A stretch of 64,000 nucleotides of DNA. It comes from Candidatus Dormiibacterota bacterium. Its GTDB lineage: Bacteria; Chloroflexota; Dormibacteria; Aeolococcales; Aeolococcaceae. The stretch lies in assembly GCA_035652335.1 (NCBI GenBank), contig DASRDZ010000077.1:17025-81024 (forward strand). Reading direction: 5' to 3'. The position numbers and the translations under genes were made by a program. The notes under the pieces were generated by a model. That model was not told the DNA's origin. It was given only the letters and a program-made list of their open reading frames with translations, and made no database searches. Positions 49,456 to 60,229 of the stretch are shown in pieces (position 1 is the first letter of the stretch; every line of letters begins with the position of its first letter).

Positions 49456-49518
49456 GGCGCAACTCTAGGCGTCCGTCGGGACCCGCCGGGATCGATGATC
49501 CGACACGTTGCGGCGGCC

Positions 49519-50778
49519 TCAGCGGGAGACGGGCGTTTCCCGCCCTGGTGCCACACGCTCGAAGAAGGACCGCCACCCGTCGGTCGGGACGCCGATCAGG
49601 CGCAGCCAGCGGCCTCTGCCGCCGCCCTCGGCCTCGATGAGCCCGAAGATGCTCCCGAGCAGGAGGGACCGCTGCGTCTCGTCCGCAGCCTCCCACGCCG
49701 CGAGCAGGTCGACCACCTGGCGCTGGCACCACTCCACGTCGCCGACGCCCTCGCGAGCCGCGGCCTCGTCGCGGATGCGCTGCTGCTCGGCACGGATGTC
49801 CTCGCGCTTGGCGAGGAAGGTGCCCCAGTCGTCCTCTCCGAACTCGTACAGGCGCTTGGCGCGGGCCAACTGCTCGTCCAGGCGCCGGATGGCGGCCTCG
49901 GCGGGCTGCCGGGGATCGGCCGGCTTGCCCACCGCCTCCCGCAGAATCCCGCGGTAGACCTCATCCACCTGGCCGCCGGGCAGGCAGCGGTAAAGCTCTT
50001 GGCGGATGGCCTCCTCAATGCGTGCCGCGCTGATCCACGATGCCGAGCACCGGATGGTCGCCGCCGGGTAGGCGGCTGAGCGGTTCCGCCGCGCCTGATG
50101 GCAGGCGTAGTAGAGGTAGACCTGACCGTCCCGGCTCACCGATTCGCCGTGCATGGTGCCGCCGCACTTGGCGCAGCGAAGGATCGGGGTGAGCGGATAG
50201 CTCCAGTGCTTGCGCACCGGGCTGTTGCAGCGCCGGTTGCGGACCCGGACGCTCTGACAGGCGTCCCAGGTCTCCTGATCCACCAGGGCAGGATGCCTGC
50301 CCTCGATCCATTGCTCGTCGCCGCTTCGCCAGCGGGTGACGCGGACCAGCCCTAGGTACACCCGGTTCTTGAGGATGTCCTTCACCACGTCGCCCGTGAA
50401 GATGACGGCCTGCGGGCGGCTGTGGTTCTCCTTCTTCGGCCCGCGCGCAGGCTTGATCCCCTGGCGGTTCAGATGGCCTGCCAAGTGCTCGAAGCTGTAG
50501 CGGCCCGTGGCGTAGAGGGTGAAGATGATGCGGATCACGGGCGCCGCGTCGGGGTCCTCCACCACGTCGCCGTCGACGCGCATGTAGCCCTGCGGGATGA
50601 CGCCGAGGAGGACGCCCTGCCGCTTCAGGAACGCCAGGTTGTCACGCACCTTGCGGGCGATCTTCTCCCGTTCCTCCTGCGCGAAGATCGCCTTCATCTT
50701 CCACGACAGCTTGTCGGCGTTCGAGATCAGGCCGTGGGCATCGAATACGAGGATGCCGCGCTCGGCCATGTCGGCCAT
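49519..50778 (-). pseudogene. Large serine recombinase. It is N-terminally truncated and lacks the catalytic-Ser subdomain, so it is likely a remnant of an integrated element.
   Basis: It begins inside the resolvase alpha-E region (GILVFDAHGLISNADKLSWKMKAIFAQEEREKIARKVRDNLAFLKRQG). It is followed by a recombinase domain, a zinc ribbon (CAKCGGTMHG..YYACHQ) and a coiled-coil. An in-frame stop lies 4 codons upstream of the first Met, so there is no room for the catalytic N-terminus. Confidence 0.65.
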
Positions 50779-50805
50779 GAAGCGGCTATGTCAACATTCG
50801 CGCAT

Positions 50806-51334
50806 GCGAGAAGCTGGCGACAACACCGCGGAAGTCATGCTCCTGTTGGCTGCGCTCCGGTCATTGAGCGCGGAGGATTGGGCGGGCTTGGGCGAGGCAG
50901 CGAGGCGTCGAGAGACCATTGCGATTGAGGAAGCGTGGGCCGACCCCGTGGACGAGCGTTACTGGGCGGCCAGGGCCAGCCTCGGCGAGATGTGCGACAG
51001 GGTCCGCGACGAGGTTCTGAGGATTGCCGAGGCGGCATTAGAGAGAGCGGAGCCGTCGGCGCGCGACAAGTTGGCAGTGACCGATCTGGCTCTACAAGGC
51101 GATGTTGCCGAGCTCGCGGCCGGGCGGCCCATGACAACGAACGCGGGCGACTTGGTCGCCCACCTCCTGAGGCTTATTAGCGACTTGGACGCTGGCGCGG
51201 TCGCTGCTGCCGACGCGGCCGAGGCCGTCGCTTTGCGGCACCACGTCGATAGCGGGCAAGTGATAAGTCTCCTGAGCGTGATCGCCCACGTTCTGCCACG
51301 CGCGCTGCTTGAGACGCTGGACTTCCCTGCGTAA
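50806..51334 (+). CDS. Hypothetical protein
   Basis: 176-aa ORF with no recognisable motif. Lower-GC codon usage than core genes. Confidence 0.3.
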
Positions 51335-51545
51335 CGCGAATGCTTCCGCCTTGCACTACGAACGTAGCGCCGTAGGTGAAACTGTGTGCAGATGAGGTTG
51401 GGCGGCGAAGGACAGGTGTGGACACGACAGGGGTGTAGTGGATCGGGGCGTGCGGGGAGGCCGGAGAGGGCGGGTGCGGGGACGATGGGGACGATGGCCA
51501 GTAGGGGGGTGCTCTACGGCTGCGGCGTTCAGGCACCCGGGGTGA

Positions 51546-52136
51546 TTAGGCTGCCTGGAGGGCGCTGCCCGCGATCAGGATTTGCATCGTCACCGGCGTC
51601 GGGCAGAGCGCCGCCCCCAGCGGAACGTAGATCGCCGTCGCGGCGCCTGGGAGGGCCGCTGAGCTGAGTTGCTTGCCGTTGCCGCTGATGCTCTCTCCCG
51701 TCAGCAGCAGCACCGCGCCAGCCGCCACGCCCGTCCAAGTGAACACCCCGTTGATGGTGCCGTCCTGGGCTGATGCGTTGCCGTCCGTCACCGAGCCGCC
51801 CGTGATCTGGAAGGTTCCGCCTGCCTCCGAGGTGGCGCCCACCGGACAGACGCCGTTGCTGTAGCCGAACGTCGCCGTTAAGTTCGAGGCCGTTGGGCTC
51901 GTCCACGTTGCGGTCCAGGCGTTGCCAGCGCTGTCGGTCCCTGCGAAGCCGCCAACGAAGGTGCCGGTGAACGACCCTCCGCAATTCTGGACAGAGCACG
52001 GAAAGTCGGCGACTGTTCCTTGGCCGTCGAACGCCCCCCCTCCTGTGACACCTGCATGCACTGGCACTGTTGTCGTAGCCACCACGAGCGGCAAAGCAGC
52101 CACTATTGCCACGAGCTTCCGTCCTCGCTCCCGCAT
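51546..52136 (-). CDS. Secreted Gly/Thr-rich hypothetical protein
   Basis: Signal peptide (MRERGRKLVAIVAALPLVVATTTVPVHA) and a Gly/Thr/Ala beta-rich mature domain. Confidence 0.45.
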   Translation of the reverse strand: MRERGRKLVAIVAALPLVVATTTVPVHAGVTGGGAFDGQGTVADFPCSVQNCGGSFTGTFVGGFAGTDSAGNAWTATWTSPTASNLTATFGYSNGVCPVGATSEAGGTFQITGGSVTDGNASAQDGTINGVFTWTGVAAGAVLLLTGESISGNGKQLSSAALPGAATAIYVPLGAALCPTPVTMQILIAGSALQAA

Positions 52137-52225
52137 TGTCGTCCTCCGCGCCGCGATATGTGAGGCGTCGGCAGGCCGGGCGCATCTTCTGCCAGCGCCT
52201 GCACCGTTGTCTTCACTACCCGCCG

Positions 52226-54103
52226 CTAGGGACAGCGTGTGTGCCAGGTGTCTCCGTCGTCGGCCGAGCAGCGCAATCCACCATCTGCGAGCAACGCAAG
52301 AACTCGACCGCTGGCAGTTTGCATCGTCGACTGAGTCTGCGTCAGCGCAGCATCACGCGAGCTGACATCGTGCCAAACATCATCTTCGGCTGCCTGCCAT
52401 GCCACGCCCTTTCCAGTACTGCCTGCCCGCAGATAGGTCAGCCACAGCCGATCGCCGCTCACCGTCACGGCGATGGGCGAGGTGCCAGGTGGCAACGGGA
52501 CAGCCTCGAAATCTCGCCCTCCATCCACGGAGTCTGCGATGCCTGCGGCCGACCACACTGCCGTCACGCGGCTGTCGGCCGCCGCCGCGATCGCTCTCGC
52601 CGAGCTGCTCCCGACCGACTGCACCGCACAGCGGCTTACCGTCCCACCACAGGCCATCACCGTCGGTGTCGCGGCTCCGGGCGGCACCGTCCCGTCCGCG
52701 ACGTCGACGCTGAACGGCGGGGCCAGCACCACCAGGGCGGCGCCGCTCTGCCGCATCGCCGGGTTGATGCTGGCTGGGTTCCCGATTGCGGGGTACGCCA
52801 GCACCAGCTGCGGAGCCGCCCCGCCGCCCGGTTGGACGCTCAGTACACCGCTCGCTGCCGCCACGTAGAGTCGGTCGTCGCCGTTGTCGAACCCGGCTGC
52901 CAGCGCAATCCCGCCGGGCGGAGTTCCCAATGGTTCCGCCGGCGCCCCGAACCAGGGAACCACGTAGGTGGTCAGGCCCCCGACGGCGCTGCTTCCGAGG
53001 AAAATCCGTGGGTCTGCGGGAAATCGGGGCGGGAGCACGACCTGCACCGCGTCAGAGGGCGCAGGCAAGGGCGCTGCGCGCCATGACCTGCCTCCATCGG
53101 CGCTGAGGAGCAGCACCGAGCACGCGCATGCCCTCCCCTGGCCCAAGGCGACGACGGCTGGTTCGCTCAGATCGTCGGTTGCTGCGAAGCTCTGGATATG
53201 CGTGTCCTCCGGTGTCTCCGTCGCCGCCGTGCGATCGGGGAGCAACGCGGCGCCGGCCCCACCGTCCGGACCGTCGCGGCCTGGTCCGGGGGCACCGGTT
53301 GCGAGGGCGACTGCCGGGGCCACGTGGCCCTGGTGCTCCTTGGCGGCCGGTGCCGTTCTTGTGGGGCTCATACTCGCCGACACCTTGGCAATCGCTACGG
53401 GGCTAATGCTCTCCGTCGAGGCGGCCGGCGCAGCTAACGCGAGCATCACACCGAAGCTGGCGGCGAGCTGTCCCAGCGAGTCGAACGCGGGCAAGGCAGA
53501 TGCCGCCTCTGGCGCCAGGGGTCGCCGTGCCCGGCGCAGCAGTCGCCGGGCCAGGCCCGCGCCAAAGGCGAACACTCCTCGCTTCTGCGGGAAACGGTCG
53601 GGGAACCACGCCCGCAGGCGGTCGCGCCCGCGAAGCAGTCGCATTCGAGCGGTCTGTGGAGCCACGCCTAGGTGGGTCGCGATCTGGCGGGGCGTCATGC
53701 CCGCGACGGCATGGAGGCGCATTGCCTCTCGCTCGGCCGGAGGAAACGCGTCGAGAGTCGCGACGACCTCGGGATCGAGGGTCTTCAGGACCGAATCAGT
53801 CGGCACCTGCGGCTGCCGCGGCAATTCCTCGGCCGCGATCCGCGCCCGCGCCCGATAGAGCTGTTGACGGAATCTGTGCATCAGCCACGGCAGCGAGTGG
53901 TCATGCTGCCGGGGTTCCGCGAGAGCGCCCATGCGCTGAAGGAAAGCGTCGATCTCCCGATCCACCTCCGGGCGGTCCCCCAGCTGGATCACCGCCTGCT
54001 CGCGAAACAGGGCGCGGTAGTCGCCGAGCACGCTGCGCAGCTCGGCGGCGCTTGCCACTGGGACGACGGGCAGGGCTTGCCGCACTCGCCGCATCTGCCG
54101 CAC
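52226..54103 (-). CDS. Single-chain fusion: ECF sigma factor (regions 2 and 4), a transmembrane helix, and an extracytoplasmic BNR/Asp-box beta-propeller-like domain
   Basis: N-terminal sigma motifs (LPWLMHRFRQQLYRARARI; EREAMRLHAVAGMTPRQIATHLGVAPQTARMRLLRGRDRLRA). TM segment LGQLAASFGVMLALAAPAAS. The C-terminal domain carries Asp-box repeats (SADGGRSW, SVDGGRDF, SADDGDTW). One uninterrupted 625-aa frame. Confidence 0.6.
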   Translation of the reverse strand: MRQMRRVRQALPVVPVASAAELRSVLGDYRALFREQAVIQLGDRPEVDREIDAFLQRMGALAEPRQHDHSLPWLMHRFRQQLYRARARIAAEELPRQPQVPTDSVLKTLDPEVVATLDAFPPAEREAMRLHAVAGMTPRQIATHLGVAPQTARMRLLRGRDRLRAWFPDRFPQKRGVFAFGAGLARRLLRRARRPLAPEAASALPAFDSLGQLAASFGVMLALAAPAASTESISPVAIAKVSASMSPTRTAPAAKEHQGHVAPAVALATGAPGPGRDGPDGGAGAALLPDRTAATETPEDTHIQSFAATDDLSEPAVVALGQGRACACSVLLLSADGGRSWRAAPLPAPSDAVQVVLPPRFPADPRIFLGSSAVGGLTTYVVPWFGAPAEPLGTPPGGIALAAGFDNGDDRLYVAAASGVLSVQPGGGAAPQLVLAYPAIGNPASINPAMRQSGAALVVLAPPFSVDVADGTVPPGAATPTVMACGGTVSRCAVQSVGSSSARAIAAAADSRVTAVWSAAGIADSVDGGRDFEAVPLPPGTSPIAVTVSGDRLWLTYLRAGSTGKGVAWQAAEDDVWHDVSSRDAALTQTQSTMQTASGRVLALLADGGLRCSADDGDTWHTRCP

Positions 54104-54771
54104 GCGCCCTCACGCCTCCGCTTCCATCCAGCCGCAGCACGGAGCGAGACACCCACCCGGGCGCTCGCGCGCCGTCATCACCGGCTCGACCAAACTCCTT
54201 CTCGCGGCCGAGCCGCACTGATTTAACGGGACAGCCGCCGCTTGTCCGGCGTGTCGCGGTGGGGCGTTGCGCCTGACCCGCGGTCTACTCGGGAAAGGCA
54301 GCGAAGTTCGTCAATCCGAACTAAATGTGCAATTCCTGTGGCCGCTAATCCGTCACATGCTCAGACGGTCCCCGGCGCCCCGTCCCAGGGATTGCCGCCC
54401 ACTCGGGCGGCCCTGGGCGAGCGGTTGGGGCCACGATCGGCGGGCAAGCGCCCGGCGGGAGGTTCGCAGTGGCGGTCACGTTGGCGGGGAGAGGGGACGT
54501 GGCACGGTGCTCGGCATTGGCGCTCCGCGTCCCGTGCCTGGTACCCATGCGTCCCGCGGCAGGGAAGCGCCCGGAAGGGAACGGGCCCCTCATGCGGTAG
54601 GCCGCCGCGCGGGGCATGGTGCCACTCCCAGCTATGGGGCGGCGCCTCGGCGGGCAGCAGAACGCCGAGGCAGCGAAGCCACCCCGGCGCCGCTGACAAA
54701 CCCGGAGAGGCCGCATCGGCCGTGAAACCTCGTCGGCCGCCGGGTAATCAACCTCTTGTAGGAGAACATAA

Positions 54772-55878
54772 ATGCTTCTAAGGAAGCGAGTCCTGGAGGT
54801 GCCAACCCCGGACGCCGGGGACCGAGACTTCAGCGCGGCAATTCCGAGTGGTTCAACTCGGCCGCGGTGGCGACGTCGCCGCCGGGCCACCCTGTTCGCG
54901 CTGTCCGGCACGGTTGCTACGCTCATCGCCCTATTGGCGGTGAGCGGTGCGCCCCGACCGGCGCTGGCCTTCAACCTCGAAGGCTTCATGTGGCGCAACG
55001 CACACACGGACATGATTCCGAACACCAGCGACCCGGCGTTGCCGCAGTGGATGGTCAACGACGTCAGCGACGGTGCGGAGTTGTGGACCGATACCAACAC
55101 TCCCGTTCAAGTCCAGGTCTACAACAACAGTACCGGCACCACGTACCAGGCGTACTATTGGGCGTACAACGACGCCAATGACAGCAGCTCGGGCGTCGGC
55201 GGTTGCGACTACGAAGAGACGGATCAGCAAGACGGCCACAGCGTGACCTACTGCAACGACGCCTACGCCGAGTACAACATGTGTACCTACTCCGGCAACG
55301 GCTCGTGCCTTGGTGACCGGCAAGGCTCGAATGCAGCGAAGGCGACCGCTGCTCATGAGATCGGCCACGTCATCGGGCTGGCGCATTCCTGCGACAACAA
55401 CTCCCTGATGGCAGGCACCAGTTGCAACAACACTCCCTATTCCTGCCCGAGTGAAAGCAACTGCATCGTGTCTCCACAGACGGATGACGTCAACGGTGTG
55501 AACGACATCTACGGGCAATACGACTACTCGGGGCCGTCCTGCCAATTTGTCCAGGGAAGCATCAGCCCCACCAACCCGGGCGGCATTCAGCCGAAGGTAC
55601 CGCCCCTTCCCAACCCGTCCACCATTGGGCAGAACGAGATCGTCAACGGACCGGGCGGACCCGTCGGGTGGGTCAACGACCAGGAGATAGGCACCGTCCC
55701 TGCAACGCCCAATGTGCAGCCGACGCAAACCGGCCAACTCCAAGCGGCAAGCGCCGAAGAGACGGTGTTCTGGTGGATCGCGAACTGGGGCCAGTCGCCT
55801 GTCATCGTGCAGAAGACGATCGGCAAGGTGGTCGGCGTCTCAGCCGGTGGCGGCTCTACCACAGCGAGCGCTTGCTGA
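54772..55878 (+). CDS. Secreted zinc metalloprotease, metzincin (matrixin/M10-like)
   Basis: Signal peptide after an RRRRRATLFALSG run. HEIGHVIGLAH zinc-binding motif with a downstream Met-turn (SLMAG). AGGAG RBS. Confidence 0.75.
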   Translation: MLLRKRVLEVPTPDAGDRDFSAAIPSGSTRPRWRRRRRATLFALSGTVATLIALLAVSGAPRPALAFNLEGFMWRNAHTDMIPNTSDPALPQWMVNDVSDGAELWTDTNTPVQVQVYNNSTGTTYQAYYWAYNDANDSSSGVGGCDYEETDQQDGHSVTYCNDAYAEYNMCTYSGNGSCLGDRQGSNAAKATAAHEIGHVIGLAHSCDNNSLMAGTSCNNTPYSCPSESNCIVSPQTDDVNGVNDIYGQYDYSGPSCQFVQGSISPTNPGGIQPKVPPLPNPSTIGQNEIVNGPGGPVGWVNDQEIGTVPATPNVQPTQTGQLQAASAEETVFWWIANWGQSPVIVQKTIGKVVGVSAGGGSTTASAC

Positions 55879-55885
55879 GGGGATC

Positions 55886-56704
55886 ATGCCAATGCGACGC
55901 TCTGTGATCCTCCGTACGACCGTGGGGCTATTTGTGGTGACCAGCGCGTCGCTCGCGGCCATCGCCCTCGCTCGGGCGCATGGCGACCAGGTTGGCAGGG
56001 AGGCGGCTTCGGCCGCCTCCGTCACCCCCAGCAGCCATACTCCATCGCCTATGTCGGCGGAACCGGGCCCCCCGCCACCGCCGTTCCCGGCCGCTGCGCA
56101 CAGTTCACAGCCGACTGGCTTCTTCGCGGATCCTAAAGCCACCCGGCCGCTGCCCTGCGGCGGCGGAAACAATCACGGGGAGATCGCGGCAACGCCGGGC
56201 GAGGGCTGGCCGGCGACGCTCAAGGCGCTCTACGCCCAGTCGGACCTCGTGGTCGTGGCAACCGCCGCGCAGCAGATCGGCTTTTGGGAGAAGCGGCCGG
56301 AAAGCACATCGTCCGGGCCTCCCGTGTTCCGCGAGTATCGGGCAAGGACGACAACCAATCTCCACGTCACCCGCGTCATCAAGGGGACCGCGGTCCCTTG
56401 GGTGCAAATTACTGATGAGGGCGCACTGTCCTCAGAAATCTCCACGTGTCCAAACCTGACTTACCAGGTGAGCAACGAACCGCTGCCAGCGCTCGGCCAG
56501 CAGTACATCCTATTTCTACAACACACCGTTCCCGGCACGACAACTGCCGAGGGCGCAACGCTCTTTGACAAGTACGCTTCCTGGGATCGCTTCCCGATAC
56601 TCTCCGACAGCATGGTGCACAGCGAAAGGGATGTGCATCCTGCGGCAGTGGCGCTCTCACTGCAACCCGAGTCGTTGGAAGCCTTCATCGCCTCCCTCAA
56701 CTGA
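55886..56704 (+). CDS. Secreted hypothetical protein
   Basis: Signal peptide (MPMRRSVILRTTVGLFVVTSASLAAIALARA) and a Pro-rich linker (EPGPPPPPFP). Its start is 8 nt after the protease stop. Confidence 0.5.
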   Translation: MPMRRSVILRTTVGLFVVTSASLAAIALARAHGDQVGREAASAASVTPSSHTPSPMSAEPGPPPPPFPAAAHSSQPTGFFADPKATRPLPCGGGNNHGEIAATPGEGWPATLKALYAQSDLVVVATAAQQIGFWEKRPESTSSGPPVFREYRARTTTNLHVTRVIKGTAVPWVQITDEGALSSEISTCPNLTYQVSNEPLPALGQQYILFLQHTVPGTTTAEGATLFDKYASWDRFPILSDSMVHSERDVHPAAVALSLQPESLEAFIASLN

Positions 56705-56842
56705 GGCGCGAATTTCTCGTACCCGGCTTCTTGGCGAACCGGGGTGCGTACGCGCTCAAACTCAATCACCGAGTCGCTGGACGCAGCGGCACATCGGCGC
56801 CGACGATCCTGTGGGAGAACGGCGCATTAGGAGTTACCTACT

Positions 56843-57490
56843 ATGACAAAGGTACGCGCAAGCATGGCCGTCGCCCTGCTCGTAGCTCTGCAACTTGGCC
56901 CGGTACGGCCCGTCCTGGCATCGACGAATCCCGCCGTTGCGGTCCTCGCGTTCAGTGCGGTTGTCACATACAATCCACCGGCCACGGTGCTCCCGGAGGC
57001 CGTCCAGACCGTGGCCTACCCGCCAGACTGCCTCCCGACGCTTGGCAGTGGACGAGAGATCGTCAACGGCAGCGCCGCCGGGATGAACACCAGCACTGTC
57101 GTCGCCCAACTCGATCCCATACCAGGGGTGGGAACCGCCACGTTCTCACTGAGCGAACCCACCGAGACGACCACGTGTGACAACATCACGCTCGGAGAGT
57201 TCAATGTCGCCGGTTCGATGCAGCATGTAGCAATACCTGTTCCCGCGCCGCTCGTCCTTACAGATTGCAACTTCGCGCTGGAGGACATGTCCCACAAGGG
57301 TGCCGTCCTCGAAGGCCAAACCAGTCAGCAGGTGGAAGACACCTGCACAGCGAATGGACAGAGTCCGATCCCGGTTGTTGCGAACTGGTACGGGACATAT
57401 ACGCCTGCCCCGACAGACGCCAGCGGCCGCGTCTCCACTGCCGTCATCGCAGGTATCCTGACCCTCTACATCGGCGGTCCACTGGGGTAG
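56843..57490 (+). CDS. Secreted hypothetical protein
   Basis: AGGAG RBS. Signal peptide MTKVRASMAVALLVALQLGPVRPVLA. Thr/Cys-containing mature domain. Confidence 0.5.
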   Translation: MTKVRASMAVALLVALQLGPVRPVLASTNPAVAVLAFSAVVTYNPPATVLPEAVQTVAYPPDCLPTLGSGREIVNGSAAGMNTSTVVAQLDPIPGVGTATFSLSEPTETTTCDNITLGEFNVAGSMQHVAIPVPAPLVLTDCNFALEDMSHKGAVLEGQTSQQVEDTCTANGQSPIPVVANWYGTYTPAPTDASGRVSTAVIAGILTLYIGGPLG

Positions 57491-57664
57491 CGGGTGGCGG
57501 GGATGCCTTCGGGGTACAACTCCGAAGGCATCCCACTGGTTCGCAACGGCCGGCCGACGCAACTGGCCCACCATCGGGCCAAAGCGTTCGTCTGAGCACC
57601 CGCACCACCACTGTGCACCGGCAAGCGCGGTCGCTCCACTCTCTCCTACGGACGGTATATGCGC

Positions 57665-58190
57665 CTACTCGTCAGATGCTTCGGCGCGCCCTGACCTCGC
57701 TGCGCGGTGGGCGGTTCTCCTCGCACATCGAGACCTCGCCATTGGTGTCACGAGGGGCCGTGTCAGCGACGGTGTCCGTGGGCGCCGTGGAAGTGCCCGG
57801 ATCGCCGCGATCACCCGGGCAACGTCAGTCCGTAGCTCTACGACCGTCTCTGGCGATGCGGAGTGCGCTTCGAGGTTCATGGCGAGCAGCGGCAGGCGGT
57901 CGTCTCCACGTCGTCGGTGACGCGTCTTGTCGACGGCACGGTGGAGAGCCGTACGAAGCAGCAGCCCACGTACGCGATCGGGGTCCAAGTCCTCGCGCTG
58001 GACGAGCCGAAGCATCGCATCGTGGACGCAATCCTCCGCGTCATGGAAGTGCTTACCCTACGCCTTCTGCGGGCCTGAGCCGTCGCGAGACTGCCGCCGC
58101 CTTGGGCGTCTCTCTCAAGTCGGTTGAAACGGCCTATACGCGGGGTGTGCAGGATCTCCGAGCACGTCTTGACGGCGATGCTCGGCCGTC
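57665..58190. pseudogene. Fragmentary ECF sigma-factor remnants
   Basis: Region-4-like motifs on the + strand, ALDEPKHRIVDAILRVMEV (to 58078) then LSRRETAAALGVSLKSVETAYTRGVQDLRARL (58080-58180), are split by a frameshift. A region-2-like ORF lies on the - strand (57665-58015: LVQREDLDPDRVRGLLLRTALHRAVDKTRHRRR). No intact sigma ORF exists. Confidence 0.3.
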
Positions 58191-58451
58191 AAGGGTGCGT
58201 TGGCGCCGCTGACCCGGGGGGCGTTGGAATCGCCGGTCACCTAGAGGGGCCAGGCACGCCCGGCAGCGGGTGCCGTCCCAGCTTCACCAGCCCGCCGCCC
58301 GGGCCAGCTCCCCCAGGCGCTCGAGCAGGTCCAATAGGTTGGAATACGCTCCAGTCTGTAGCGGGAGACTGCGGACTCGAACTCAAGGCGGGCGGTGTTG
58401 AAGGGAGTGAGCCGGGACGCCAAGATCGCGTCCCGGCGTCACTCGGACGTC

Positions 58452-58640
58452 CTAACCGTTCTCGTCGGGTACGTCCGCGCCCTTCTTGATGGTCGTGGCG
58501 AGGTGATCTGTCGCACGCACGGCACGCGGTGGCGGCTCACCCCCGCGGAACTGAGCGGCGAGGTGCGACGTGTCCACGACCGGGCGCGGGACGGGCGGGG
58601 GCGCCTTCGGCGTCGGCGAACTGGGATCCGGTTTGGTCAA
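58452..58640 (-). CDS. Small Pro-rich hypothetical protein, co-transcribed downstream of the membrane protein
   Basis: TTG start preceded by AAAGGAG at 6 nt, 20 nt after the upstream stop. 62 aa, Pro/Ala-rich. Confidence 0.35.
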   Translation of the reverse strand: MTKPDPSSPTPKAPPPVPRPVVDTSHLAAQFRGGEPPPRAVRATDHLATTIKKGADVPDENG

Positions 58641-58659
58641 GTCGATCTCCTTTAGGCAA

Positions 58660-59193
58660 CTAGACGGACAGAAGGAAGCCCGACACGCCGCAGAGAAGCC
58701 CCACGACGAGCATCACCGCGCCGCTCTGGATCGCTAGAACCTTGCTGTCCTCGACGCCCTTGTTCTTCTTCCAGGCCGTAACGGCACGCGATGACAGCAT
58801 CTCCAAGACGTTCGCTTCGTCGTCCCCGAAGTGGTGGGTATGCAGGCCCTCGGGATCGACGGTCTCAATCGCCCGCGGCCACCAGACGATGAAGCCGGCG
58901 ACGATGGAGCCAAGAAAGAGCACCGCGGCGACGATGCACAGACAGTAGGCCAGCAGATGGGTCGGCGGGTGGGTTGCCAATGCCGTCAGGAACCCCGCCA
59001 GCGCGGCGCCGGAGGCAGCGACCTCGAACGAAGCCTTCAAGTCCAGCGAGTTGAGGTGAGCGTGCTGGTCCGAGAGGAGACGAAGGTTGGTGTCGCACAC
59101 CAGCCGGGCGCTCGGGAGGGAGACATCGTCGTGCTCGGACTCGGCGACACGGAGCGGCGGCGTCATACCGAACAATTGTACTGATCTCGTCAA
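58660..59193 (-). CDS. Hypothetical small integral membrane protein (3 predicted TM helices)
   Basis: 177 aa with a soluble N-terminal ~65 aa, then a TM pair (LAGFLTALA.. / LLAYCLCIVAAVLFLGSIVAGFIVWW), a short basic loop and a C-terminal TM. Confidence 0.45.
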   Translation of the reverse strand: MTRSVQLFGMTPPLRVAESEHDDVSLPSARLVCDTNLRLLSDQHAHLNSLDLKASFEVAASGAALAGFLTALATHPPTHLLAYCLCIVAAVLFLGSIVAGFIVWWPRAIETVDPEGLHTHHFGDDEANVLEMLSSRAVTAWKKNKGVEDSKVLAIQSGAVMLVVGLLCGVSGFLLSV

Positions 59194-59571
59194 GAAGTGG
59201 CGCCCCCCCGCCTGCCGCGGACGGCGACCAGCGCAGAGGGGCGGCTCCCCGCGCGCGTACCCACATCCTTACGCACGCACATAGGCGACAGGTGGGTACA
59301 CGAGGGCATGGCGGCGCTCCCGACAGACCGATTCTGAGCACAAGCCGTGCCCTTCTGTGCCCCCGCACCATCCGAAGGTCGCTCTGGAAATGCGCGCATT
59401 TCGCAGGACGGTGCTACGTGGTGTCGCCAGTCGCCGGCCTGGCACAGTCTTGCCTGTCCTACGGACGCCAGCGGCGCGCAGCCTGTGGCCGCATGCTGGC
59501 ACTCGCTCCGTGGGAGTGCTAGCCTGTCGTCCGAAGCTACGCGACGTGCACCCGCCACGGAGGAAGCCGGA

Positions 59572-59949
59572 TTGTTGACCAACGACCTGTTCTACGCCGC
59601 CGAGAAGTTCCACCAAGCGCTCGACGCGCTCGCAACAGGGGAGGGCGTGTTGCGTGAGCGGCTCATCACCGCATGCATGTGCAACATCACTGCTCACCGG
59701 GCACACCCAATGCGCGCTGGCCTTGGGCCGAAGATGCCTGCCGAGCTAGTCGAGCGGATCTACGATTTCACGGACCGCGTGACTGCTACAGCGGCAGTGG
59801 GTAACGAGGGCACGCTCACCGCCACGCTCAACGCCATGTCCGACGAGGAACTACGCAGCACCGCCGAGGAGTTGTCTTCCCTCAGCCTGAAGGTCATCGA
59901 GACCTTCGAGCGCGACGACGCGCGGTCGAGTTCCACGTCAGGGGTGTAG
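59572..59949 (+). CDS. Hypothetical alpha-helical protein
   Basis: GGAGGA RBS ~8 nt before the TTG-TTG at 59572/59575. ~125 aa (LLTNDLFYAAEKFHQALDALATGEGVLRERL...). No recognisable family. Confidence 0.4.
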   Translation: MLTNDLFYAAEKFHQALDALATGEGVLRERLITACMCNITAHRAHPMRAGLGPKMPAELVERIYDFTDRVTATAAVGNEGTLTATLNAMSDEELRSTAEELSSLSLKVIETFERDDARSSSTSGV

Positions 59950-60090
59950 CTGCCGTTGCGATCTCCCACTGGTCCCGGCCGCAGCGGTGTGGGTCGCGCC
60001 CTCCCAAGCGAGGAAGGTAGCCCAAGCACGGCGGGCCTGGTTCACAAACCGAGGCGATAAGCGAACTGGACTCCCCTGTCGATTTCGGCA

Positions 60091-60165
60091 GTGGAGCGGG
60101 AGACGGGGCTCGAACCCGCAACTTCAACCTTGGGAAGGTTGCACTCTACCGTTGAGTTACTCCCG
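60091..60165 (-). tRNA. tRNA-Gly (anticodon CCC)
   Basis: Reverse complement GCGGGAGTAACTCAACGGTAGAGTGCAACCTTCCCAAGGTTGAAGTTGCGGGTTCGAGCCCCGTCTCCCGCTCCA. Cloverleaf with a 7-bp acceptor, anticodon loop TTCCCAA, T-loop TTCGAGC, discriminator U and CCA. Confidence 0.85.
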
Positions 60166-60229
60166 CTCGACGGCCGGCGCCGAGTCTAGCACCCCCCGCG
60201 GCCGGGCCCCGGTGCTACCGTCCCTGCCC

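Follow-up and report, generated by a model that had tools for sequence, protein, structure and literature searches.

A predicted membrane-tethered sigma factor with a fused seven-bladed Asp-box propeller and a small secreted protein encoded next to it

The stretch analyzed here is a 64,000-nucleotide window of a contig (DASRDZ010000077.1) from a Candidatus Dormiibacterota bacterium. On its reverse strand lies a gene, hereafter the fusion gene, that joins a predicted sigma factor of the extracytoplasmic function (ECF) type, a predicted transmembrane (TM) segment, a stalk, and a seven-bladed Asp-box β-propeller in one polypeptide (Table 1). The gene is followed by a gene for a small secreted protein and preceded by a promoter-like motif, and a metzincin gene lies divergently upstream. 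The fusion gene forms one frame of 625 codons with zero internal stops, so that no authentic stop splits a sigma gene from a downstream gene, and starts either with GTG at 54103 or with ATG at 54094, three codons later, as in the database entry P0001. The GC content at third codon positions (GC3) stays between 0.73 and 0.93 throughout the sigma/TM/stalk junction, and a frame change there is therefore not indicated. The identical fusion protein is found in three independent assemblies (JGI, Logan, and ENA), on contigs of which one is 76.7 kb long. An initial annotation of this DNA, made from the sequence alone, had described a single open reading frame (ORF), and the frame, the continuous GC3, and the three assemblies bear this out.

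By a word-indexed protein search the fusion protein appeared to be an orphan, because only the protein itself and two full-length relatives (41% and 29% identity) were returned. This status was overturned by an exhaustive HMMER profile search of 1.84 billion cluster representatives, which found 212 representatives at E<1e-30, most of them 600–660 amino acids long and matched end to end. Separate hidden Markov models (HMMs) for the N- and C-terminal parts located both modules in 129 of the best-scoring representatives. In the following, family statistics on the TM segment, spacing, and cysteines refer to 127 members that passed stricter filters, and Pfam tallies and column counts refer to 66 aligned full-length members. 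The orthologous fusions that the initial annotation suggested looking for thus exist, with the sigma/TM/propeller architecture present in ∼127–129 metagenomic cluster representatives. The fusion is genuine and evolutionarily conserved, and results neither from a missed stop nor from a frameshift. In genome collections, relatives were found in metagenome-assembled genomes (MAGs) labeled Candidatus Dormiibacterota and Candidatus Angelobacter, in a scan with a single peptide pattern from an 11-sequence alignment that yielded 4 loci and under-samples the taxonomic range. The hosts appear to belong to a Dormibacterota-like lineage of soil bacteria.

The N-terminal module is supported as an ECF-type sigma factor by profile comparison and structure prediction, as had been proposed initially. 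The sigma-4 domain lies above the Pfam cut-off, with Sigma70_r4_2 (PF08281) matching residues 115–163 (E=1e-8, 35.1 bits versus a gathering threshold of 25.7). The model TIGR02937 (sigma70-ECF) aligned with residues 58–164, thereby taking in only the end of sigma-2 plus sigma-4, and its 41.3 bits fall just below the cut-off of 42.9. When compared with structures in the Protein Data Bank (PDB), the family profile matched SigL of Mycobacterium tuberculosis with E=6.7e-28 (profile positions 13–175), spanning sigma-2 and sigma-4, and further ECF sigma factors over both domains (SigE, 4e-25; Bacillus subtilis SigW, 1e-24). The fusion protein alone matched M. tuberculosis SigE (9m9d_F) with E=6.7e-6, in an alignment that takes in nothing before the end of region 2 and extends to region 4. 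Among the 66 members, Sigma70_r4_2 was found in 58 and Sigma70_r2 in 32 (best 2e-17).

AlphaFold2 (AF2) predicts both domains with high confidence. For sigma-2, the predicted local distance difference test (pLDDT) score is 87–97 per 10-residue block over residues 11–90 (helices 19–28, 30–41, 46–59, and 70–93), and sigma-4 is a four-helix helix-turn-helix (HTH) domain (residues 105–170, pLDDT 89–96 per 10-residue block). The two domains are connected by only ∼15 low-confidence residues (94–108), in keeping with the short linker of ECF (group 4) sigma factors. Such sigma factors also lack regions 1.1 and 3, and the Pfam scan of the fusion protein gave no region 3 match. Because TIGR02937 stays just below its cut-off and Pfam returns no region 2 match, we regard sigma-2 as probably present but diverged. 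The AEDxxQ motif of region 2 is replaced by VDREIDAFLQ in the fusion protein, whereas Trp-73 of the W-L motif is kept. The motif is also replaced in the closest relatives (P0002, P0005, P0006, P0008, P0013, and P0019); other clades retain AEDA(T/V)QD (P0003, P0004, P0010, and P0016).

Sigma-4 is followed by an Arg-rich juxtamembrane helix with the family consensus G-L-L...RRLRR...R (Leu-178 in 47/66 members, Arg-187 in 41/66, Arg-189 in 46/66, and Arg-194 in 48/66), which AF2 places at residues 178–192 with moderate pLDDT. The best 19-residue Kyte–Doolittle window covers the predicted TM segment (residues 210–228, score 1.58). In the family, the most hydrophobic 19-mer between the modules has a median score of 1.81 and reaches at least 1.6 in 80% of the members; by medians it lies ∼39 residues after sigma-4 and ∼65 residues before the propeller. 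The single TM helix of the initial annotation is thus upheld, in that an equivalent hydrophobic segment recurs throughout the family. The segment contains helix-destabilizing Gly and Pro as well as runs of Ala. For residues 199–285, which include most of the stalk, AF2 gives pLDDT <50 and no confident structure. The length of the stalk is conserved in the family (median ∼65 residues), and its sequence is not.

An anti-sigma domain is missing between sigma-4 and the TM segment. The zf-HC2/ZAS family (PF13490) has no match among the Pfam hits of the 66 members, no HxxxCxxC motif occurs in the 60 members listed, and the fusion protein is devoid of Cys and His across residues 165–255. A FecR-like domain was matched neither in the fusion protein nor in the 66 members. 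Class I anti-sigma domains are cytoplasmic four-helix domains of ∼80–100 residues that precede the TM segment, whereas here the stretch from sigma-4 to the TM segment is only ∼39 residues long (median) and has a single predicted helix. The built-in anti-sigma-like part suggested in the initial annotation was therefore not found, and the protein is better described as a tethered sigma factor with a sensor than as a strict sigma/anti-sigma fusion.

The C-terminal domain contains three Asp-boxes, as noted at the outset (starting at residues 334, 525, and 613). In shuffled versions of the protein the mean count is 0.012, and three were reached in 0 of 20,000 shuffles. The Pfam BNR model scores below threshold on the fusion protein itself (17.7 versus a gathering threshold of 27), but in the family BNR was found in 49/66 members (E≤0.01), Sortilin-Vps10 in 17/66, and BNR_2 in 5/66. 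With an alignment of 3 sequences, AF2 gave a propeller pLDDT of ∼50; with 66 sequences, the mean pLDDT was 83, and residues 290–625 form an all-β domain with pLDDT 87–98 per 10-residue block. The C-terminal third of the family profile matches the Asp-box propeller structures of GH74 xyloglucanases, Ycf48, sortilin, and DAIP (E-values 1e-6 to 1e-14). By Foldseek, Ycf48 is the best single-domain structural match (TM-score normalized to the target, 0.58), and DAIP scores 0.45. The best structural matches are seven-bladed, whereas the sialidase (GH33) propeller is six-bladed and is characterized by a catalytic Arg triad and a Tyr/Glu nucleophile. Hence, the proposed sialidase/BNR-type propeller holds as an Asp-box/BNR propeller of the seven-bladed, Ycf48/Vps10/GH74-like kind, but nothing in these comparisons identifies a sialidase.

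Like the fusion protein, Ycf48/HCF136, sortilin-Vps10, GH74, and DAIP of Streptomyces mobaraensis have Asp-box (SxDxGxTW) propellers that are seven-bladed or related. However, these propellers occur without a transcription module, and their identity to the fusion propeller is only ∼10–15%. Specific to the fusion family are the ETPED lead-in and a pattern of six conserved cysteines (Cys-326, Cys-328, Cys-485, Cys-492, Cys-612, and Cys-624), with exactly six cysteines in the C-terminal domain of 117/127 members. Six conserved cysteines after a TM-like segment suggest an oxidizing environment, and the propeller is therefore probably extracytoplasmic.

Directly downstream of the fusion gene is the gene of the small secreted protein, with no terminator-like site in between. 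The protein has a signal peptide ending ...VHA/G and invariant Cys-47, Cys-52, and Cys-178, and matches no Pfam family. A ∼200-residue ORF directly follows the propeller gene on the same strand in 15/15 loci (the window, L001, L004–L008, and L010–L018, with duplicate contigs collapsed). An HMM built from five of these proteins matched the downstream ORF in 14/14 loci that were run (E 1e-17 to 1e-80); in the fifteenth locus, L018, the gene order is given by the gene call. The TM-propeller module is also found behind PucR-type HTH/GGDEF_2 regulators (P0052, P0067, and P0078). In locus L017, such a PucR HTH version of the propeller gene is again directly followed by the partner gene (HMM match), so that the pairing goes with the propeller rather than with the sigma factor. 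We regard this as the strongest evidence for a joint function of the small protein and the sensor. It argues for a modular extracytoplasmic sensor that consists of the TM-propeller and the partner protein, in which the latter would serve the propeller as co-sensor, ligand-presenting subunit, or inhibitor. PADLOC models match neither of the two proteins.

Upstream of the fusion gene we identified the motif TTGCAC-N16-CGAA. The exact motif, again in an AT-rich patch, is also present upstream of the orthologous gene in three other loci (L010, L012, and L014), and L001 and L015 have sequences close to it, although the proteins at these loci are only ∼30–40% identical and the intergenic DNA is otherwise unalignable. 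Within the 64-kb window the exact motif is unique, and the sole one-mismatch match elsewhere is at chance level. ECF promoters combine an AAC-type −35 element with a spacer of 16–17 nt and a −10 element of the CGT/CGA type. We propose that TTGCAC-N16-CGAA, the layout of which resembles such promoters, is a candidate autoregulatory promoter that the fused sigma factor itself may use. Another promoter guess, AACTTC-N-TAGAC, was dropped because it is common only to the closest orthologue. Searches of the DNA between 51.3 and 54.9 kb yielded neither an Rfam family nor a sigma-70-type promoter, nor was a convincing terminator seen. In L004, L007, and L008, other blocks are conserved upstream, and no clear ECF promoter could be recognized there.

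Table 1. Features of the fusion gene and its immediate surroundings (window coordinates)
Feature	Residues	Coordinates	Strand	Remarks
Secreted partner gene	196 in total	51546..52136	-	Starts 89 nt downstream of the fusion gene, same strand
Whole fusion gene (ECF sigma/TM/stalk/seven-bladed Asp-box propeller)	625 in total	52226..54103	-	
Predicted sigma-2 domain, diverged	10-93	53825..54076	-	AF2, family profile
Sigma-4 domain with helix-turn-helix	105-170	53594..53791	-	PF08281, SigE alignment, AF2
Arg-rich juxtamembrane helix, GVFAFGAGLARRLLRRARR	176-194	53522..53578	-	Column counts, AF2
Predicted single TM segment, LGQLAASFGVMLALAAPAA	210-228	53420..53476	-	Ala/Gly/Pro-rich; Kyte-Doolittle
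Low-complexity Pro/Ala/Gly-rich stalk	229-295	53219..53419	-	Predicted disordered; AF2
Seven-bladed β-propeller	296-625	52229..53218	-	Opens with conserved ETPED
Asp-box 1, SADGGRSW	334-341	53081..53104	-	Family: S 59/66, D 64/66, G 64/66, W 66/66
Asp-box 2, SVDGGRDF	525-532	52508..52531	-	S525, D527, and G529 at least 90% conserved
Asp-box 3, SADDGDTW	613-620	52244..52267	-	W620 invariant; flanking C612 and C624 invariant
Candidate ECF-type promoter TTGCAC-N16-CGAA		54307..54332	-	Within an AT-rich patch; distance to the start codon 204-229 nt

The initial annotation had offered two modes of action for such a protein, release by proteolysis or action while membrane-bound, and we judge these to be the right ones. 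On balance, we favor that the gene encodes a one-component membrane-tethered ECF-type sigma factor that is released by regulated proteolysis. In the cytoplasm, sigma-2 and sigma-4 would be joined through the ∼40-residue Arg-rich helical stretch to a single, weakly hydrophobic TM segment, from which the ∼65-residue disordered stalk would lead to the disulfide-bonded seven-bladed Asp-box propeller outside the cell. The partner gene is presumably co-transcribed with the fusion gene. At rest, the membrane tether, perhaps assisted by the juxtamembrane helix, would prevent the sigma factor from forming a productive holoenzyme with RNA polymerase. Once the complex of propeller and partner changes, the stalk would become accessible to a site-1 protease, followed by cleavage of the Ala/Gly/Pro-rich TM segment by an intramembrane site-2 protease. 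The freed sigma factor might drive its own operon from TTGCAC-N16-CGAA, plus further targets. By analogy with the sigma–TM fusions described in the literature (see below), we prefer proteolysis because of the disordered stalk, the composition of the TM segment, and the RseB-like downstream position of the partner gene. The TM segments of the site-2 protease substrates RseA and RsiW resemble such a composition, and their cleavage exposes Ala-rich degrons. Since neither an anti-sigma nor a zinc-finger domain was found, the sigma factor would have to be silenced by its membrane tether alone or by the short Arg-rich helix.

Several observations weigh against this interpretation. Neither the fusion protein nor its closest subclade gave a Pfam match to Sigma70_r2 (PF04542), which together with their loss of AEDxxQ makes the competence for core-polymerase binding and DNA melting uncertain. 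Taken alone, the TM score of 1.58 is marginal, and AF2 models no confident helix at this position. The lack of an anti-sigma domain leaves unexplained how activity is blocked before release. Furthermore, no protease gene is conserved in the neighborhood of the loci examined, and no second TTGCAC-N16-CGAA is present in the window, so that no regulon beyond the operon was identified.

The best-surviving alternative, which nevertheless appears unlikely, is that the sigma factor acts while membrane-bound, as ToxR, CadC, and TcpP do, and recruits RNA polymerase and promoter DNA to the membrane without proteolysis. The propeller/partner pair would then modulate its activity allosterically or through oligomerization. 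Such a mode would fit with the lack of an anti-sigma domain and of a conserved protease gene nearby, with a juxtamembrane linker that is short and conserved, and with the occurrence of the same TM-propeller module on ordinary HTH regulators of the PucR type, a kind of protein of which many are known to act as one-component regulators at the membrane. However, docking into the ∼400-kDa core enzyme with a tether ∼40 residues from sigma-4 would be sterically demanding, the long disordered stalk and the Ala/Gly/Pro-rich TM segment look like proteolysis substrates, and the characterized sigma–TM fusion IutY is released by proteolysis.

We consider it distinctly unlikely that the fusion protein and its closest subclade carry a pseudo-sigma factor that has kept the fold and lost its function as an RNA polymerase subunit, be it a PhyR-like decoy for another regulator, a mere DNA-binding HTH protein, or decaying cargo of a degraded mobile island. 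The missing Sigma70_r2 match would fit this scenario, as would the distribution of AEDxxQ, which is gone in the fusion protein and its closest relatives and kept in other clades, a PhyR_sigma-like match in 9/66 members, and the truncated recombinase and sigma-gene remnant in the surrounding island (see below). In contrast, the subclade is conserved end to end and stop-free over many distinct clusters, the fusion gene has the GC3 expected of a coding sequence, the AF2 confidence for sigma-2 is very high, sigma-4 is intact, and the promoter-like motif is conserved upstream specifically in this subclade.

It is highly improbable that the propeller is a surface-displayed enzyme (a sialidase or GH74-type glycoside hydrolase) to which the sigma module is incidental. 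Besides the weak similarity to GH74 xyloglucanases, the fusion protein has a weak match to the glycosylhydrolase model F510_1955 (E=3.6e-5, far below the cut-off). However, GH74 enzymes use two tandem propellers and the fusion has only one, the sialidase-type BNR_2 is confined to the 5 members mentioned, and Ycf48, the closest single-domain structure, is a non-enzymatic assembly factor. That the propeller is always accompanied by a secreted protein and by DNA-binding modules speaks for signaling instead. Asp-boxes are structural and not catalytic motifs.

Finally, an assembly or sequencing artefact, in which a missed stop or frameshift would have merged a sigma gene with a downstream anti-sigma or sensor gene, could be argued only from the low complexity of the junction and from the fact that fusions of this kind are generally rare. 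It is effectively refuted, because both domains share one ∼640-residue polypeptide in the 129 best-scoring representatives mentioned, in addition to the concordant assemblies and continuous GC3, and because the apparent C-terminal-only match P0070, the candidate that was checked when we looked for a split version (a separate sigma and TM-propeller gene pair), is a gene cut by the contig end.

A sigma factor with a fused sensor is not unprecedented. The initial annotation had set the fusion against the separately encoded anti-sigma factor that is usual for ECF sigma factors; IutY and the groups ECF48, ECF52, and ECF53 are precedents. IutY (ECF243) of Pseudomonas putida is released by Prc (site-1) and RseP (site-2), and its truncated form is constitutively active. 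For ECF48, ECF52, and ECF53, a similar proteolytic release is predicted, and truncated SCO4117 (ECF52) of Streptomyces coelicolor is active. The proteins of these three actinobacterial groups, like the fusion, combine an ECF sigma factor, one or more TM helices, a Pro-rich stalk, and a large outside domain in one polypeptide. The logic is also shared, with no separate anti-sigma gene and positive autoregulation proposed. However, these groups are defined by a zinc finger (ZAS, pfam13490) between sigma-4 and the TM region, which was found in none of the fusion family members examined. ECF52 additionally has a carbohydrate-binding module, whereas the outside domain of the fusion family is a seven-bladed Asp-box propeller. 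The fusion family further differs in its obligatory secreted partner gene, in the ∼40 residues from sigma-4 to the TM segment, and in its apparent occurrence in Dormibacterota-like soil bacteria rather than Actinobacteria.

IutY is likewise a sigma factor tethered to the membrane through a C-terminal fusion, but its FecR-type anti-sigma and periplasmic domain takes part in cell-surface signaling together with a TonB-dependent receptor; no FecR-type domain was detected in the fusion. The RpoE–RseA–RseB system has an outside sensing domain, a single TM segment, and a secreted or periplasmic accessory protein whose gene follows directly, as predicted here, and frees its sigma factor by sequential proteolysis, the logic that we propose for the fusion. 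There, however, the anti-sigma factor is a protein of its own that inhibits the sigma factor through a four-helix domain, whereas the fusion has a covalent tether and no anti-sigma domain. Pro-sigma-K of B. subtilis is a membrane-associated sigma factor that is activated by direct cleavage by the intramembrane site-2 metalloprotease SpoIVFB. It differs from the fusion in its short N-terminal pro-sequence, in being a group-3 sigma factor, and in having no extracytoplasmic sensor domain. As far as could be determined from the accessible literature, the fusion family is an uncharacterized and undescribed variant of ECF sigma factors with fused TM sensors. It is defined by four features: the seven-bladed six-Cys Asp-box propeller, the absence of an anti-sigma domain, the obligatory secreted partner, and a sensor that is interchangeable between sigma and PucR-type outputs.

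The family also includes variants. A second clade (L004, 4215–9555; L007, 7812–12946; L008, 7816–12922), in which the canonical AEDxxQ motif of sigma-2 is kept, sits in a chromosomal polysaccharide-biosynthesis cluster. The clade is syntenic with this cluster, which comprises a Polysacc_synt flippase, Wzy_C, a glycosyltransferase, and, judged from its N-terminal sequence and not by search, a likely GDP-mannose dehydratase. This setting hints at a cell-envelope role of the chromosomal version. Five proteins (P0086, P0094, P0113, P0123, and P0136) carry an extra N-terminal HTH_28/HTH_32 (transposase-like homeodomain) ahead of the sigma module. Among the entries P0153–P0191 are many sigma-70/ECF proteins of ∼450–720 residues that have the sigma module in common and lack this propeller, indicating that soil metagenomes hold further uncharacterized long sigma fusions.

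The fusion gene lies in an island of lower GC content (window 49500–60200), where the GC fraction falls from ∼0.73 to 0.64–0.69 between ∼50 and 60 kb. The left edge is marked by a large serine recombinase gene (49519–50778, −) that has only Recombinase and Zn_ribbon_recom matches, without the catalytic N-terminal Resolvase domain, and the right edge by a tRNA-Gly(CCC) gene (60092–60166, −). No flanking direct repeats (att sites) were found around the island. Related loci also carry serine recombinases, and L018 additionally has RadC, SSB, and HTH_3 genes. Two ORFs of the island, one ending in a partial Sigma70_r4_2 match (57265–58212, +; E=0.002) and one with a region-2.4-like stretch and no Pfam match (57665–58015, −; RVRGLLLRTALHRAVDKTRHRRR), are probably the remains of a decayed second ECF sigma gene. 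A 177-residue membrane protein (58660–59193, −) has a weak match to the Pycsar effector model PycTM (PADLOC, E=2.5e-5) and shares 30% identity with a protein of the related island L001 that Pfam annotates as PycTM; beside the PycTM-like gene, a cyclase gene could be made out neither in the window nor in L001. Three further ORFs (55712–56704, 56843–57490, and 50597–51334, all +) have coding-like GC3 and no Pfam or PADLOC match, and at least two of them have signal-peptide-like N termini.

The divergent neighbor of the fusion gene is a metzincin gene (54772..55878, +) at a distance of 668 bp (Peptidase_M10, E=8.5e-9), the translation of which contains HEIGHVIGLAH, corresponding to the HExxHxxGxxH motif. 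The initial annotation had placed a divergent metzincin ∼670 bp away as a candidate partner. Position and type agree, but the partner role does not hold. The metzincin is absent from this position in the other loci examined and has no copy of the upstream motif; even relaxed versions of TTGCAC-N16-CGAA gave nothing upstream of it or of other island genes. The divergent gene instead varies between loci, being an RHS toxin gene in L001 and L014, an RCC1-repeat giant in L010 and L013 (with CHAP in L013), an unannotated or NYN-like gene in L004, L007, and L012, and a resolvase gene in L005 and L018, and the metzincin is therefore not a conserved partner. DAIP, with which the propeller shares weak sequence similarity (E=1.4e-6) and fold similarity (PDB codes 5fzp and 6fhp), is a Streptomyces propeller that binds secreted metalloproteases. 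This is of interest beside a metzincin gene, but conservation does not support a link.

Large secreted or surface proteins recur at the divergent position (window 54772–55878, +; L001, 3887–9406; L014, 1–6626; L010, 3–3965; L013, 3882–7145). They are of the metzincin, RHS/YD-shell toxin, and RCC1-repeat kinds, one of the latter with a CHAP amidase domain. These genes could form a variable output cassette; no promoter motif common to them was found. A broader joint reading, which we regard as improbable, sees in the family a mobile, self-contained surveillance circuit on serine-recombinase islands that switches on a divergent secreted weapon. The propeller and its partner could then sense an extracellular cue, e.g. 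a competitor's cell-envelope component or a secreted protease, and the signal could directly free the tethered module (the ECF sigma in most members, the PucR-type HTH in others). In the window the weapon could be the metzincin, and at other loci an RHS toxin or an RCC1/CHAP giant.

Fusion of the sigma factor with a membrane sensor of its own represents the least understood form of ECF regulation, of which only IutY and, in part, SCO4117 have been studied. The complete loss of the anti-sigma domain in the fusion family raises the question of whether a membrane tether alone can silence a sigma factor. As a two-gene system of sensor-sigma and secreted partner with a candidate promoter, it could be rebuilt in a model host, which would put intramembrane proteolysis of a sigma factor to the test. 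The interchange of one sensor between sigma and PucR-type outputs bears on the evolution and engineering of one-component transmembrane signaling. The family comes from poorly studied soil lineages, assigned to Dormibacterota-like MAGs, whose regulatory biology is almost entirely unexplored.

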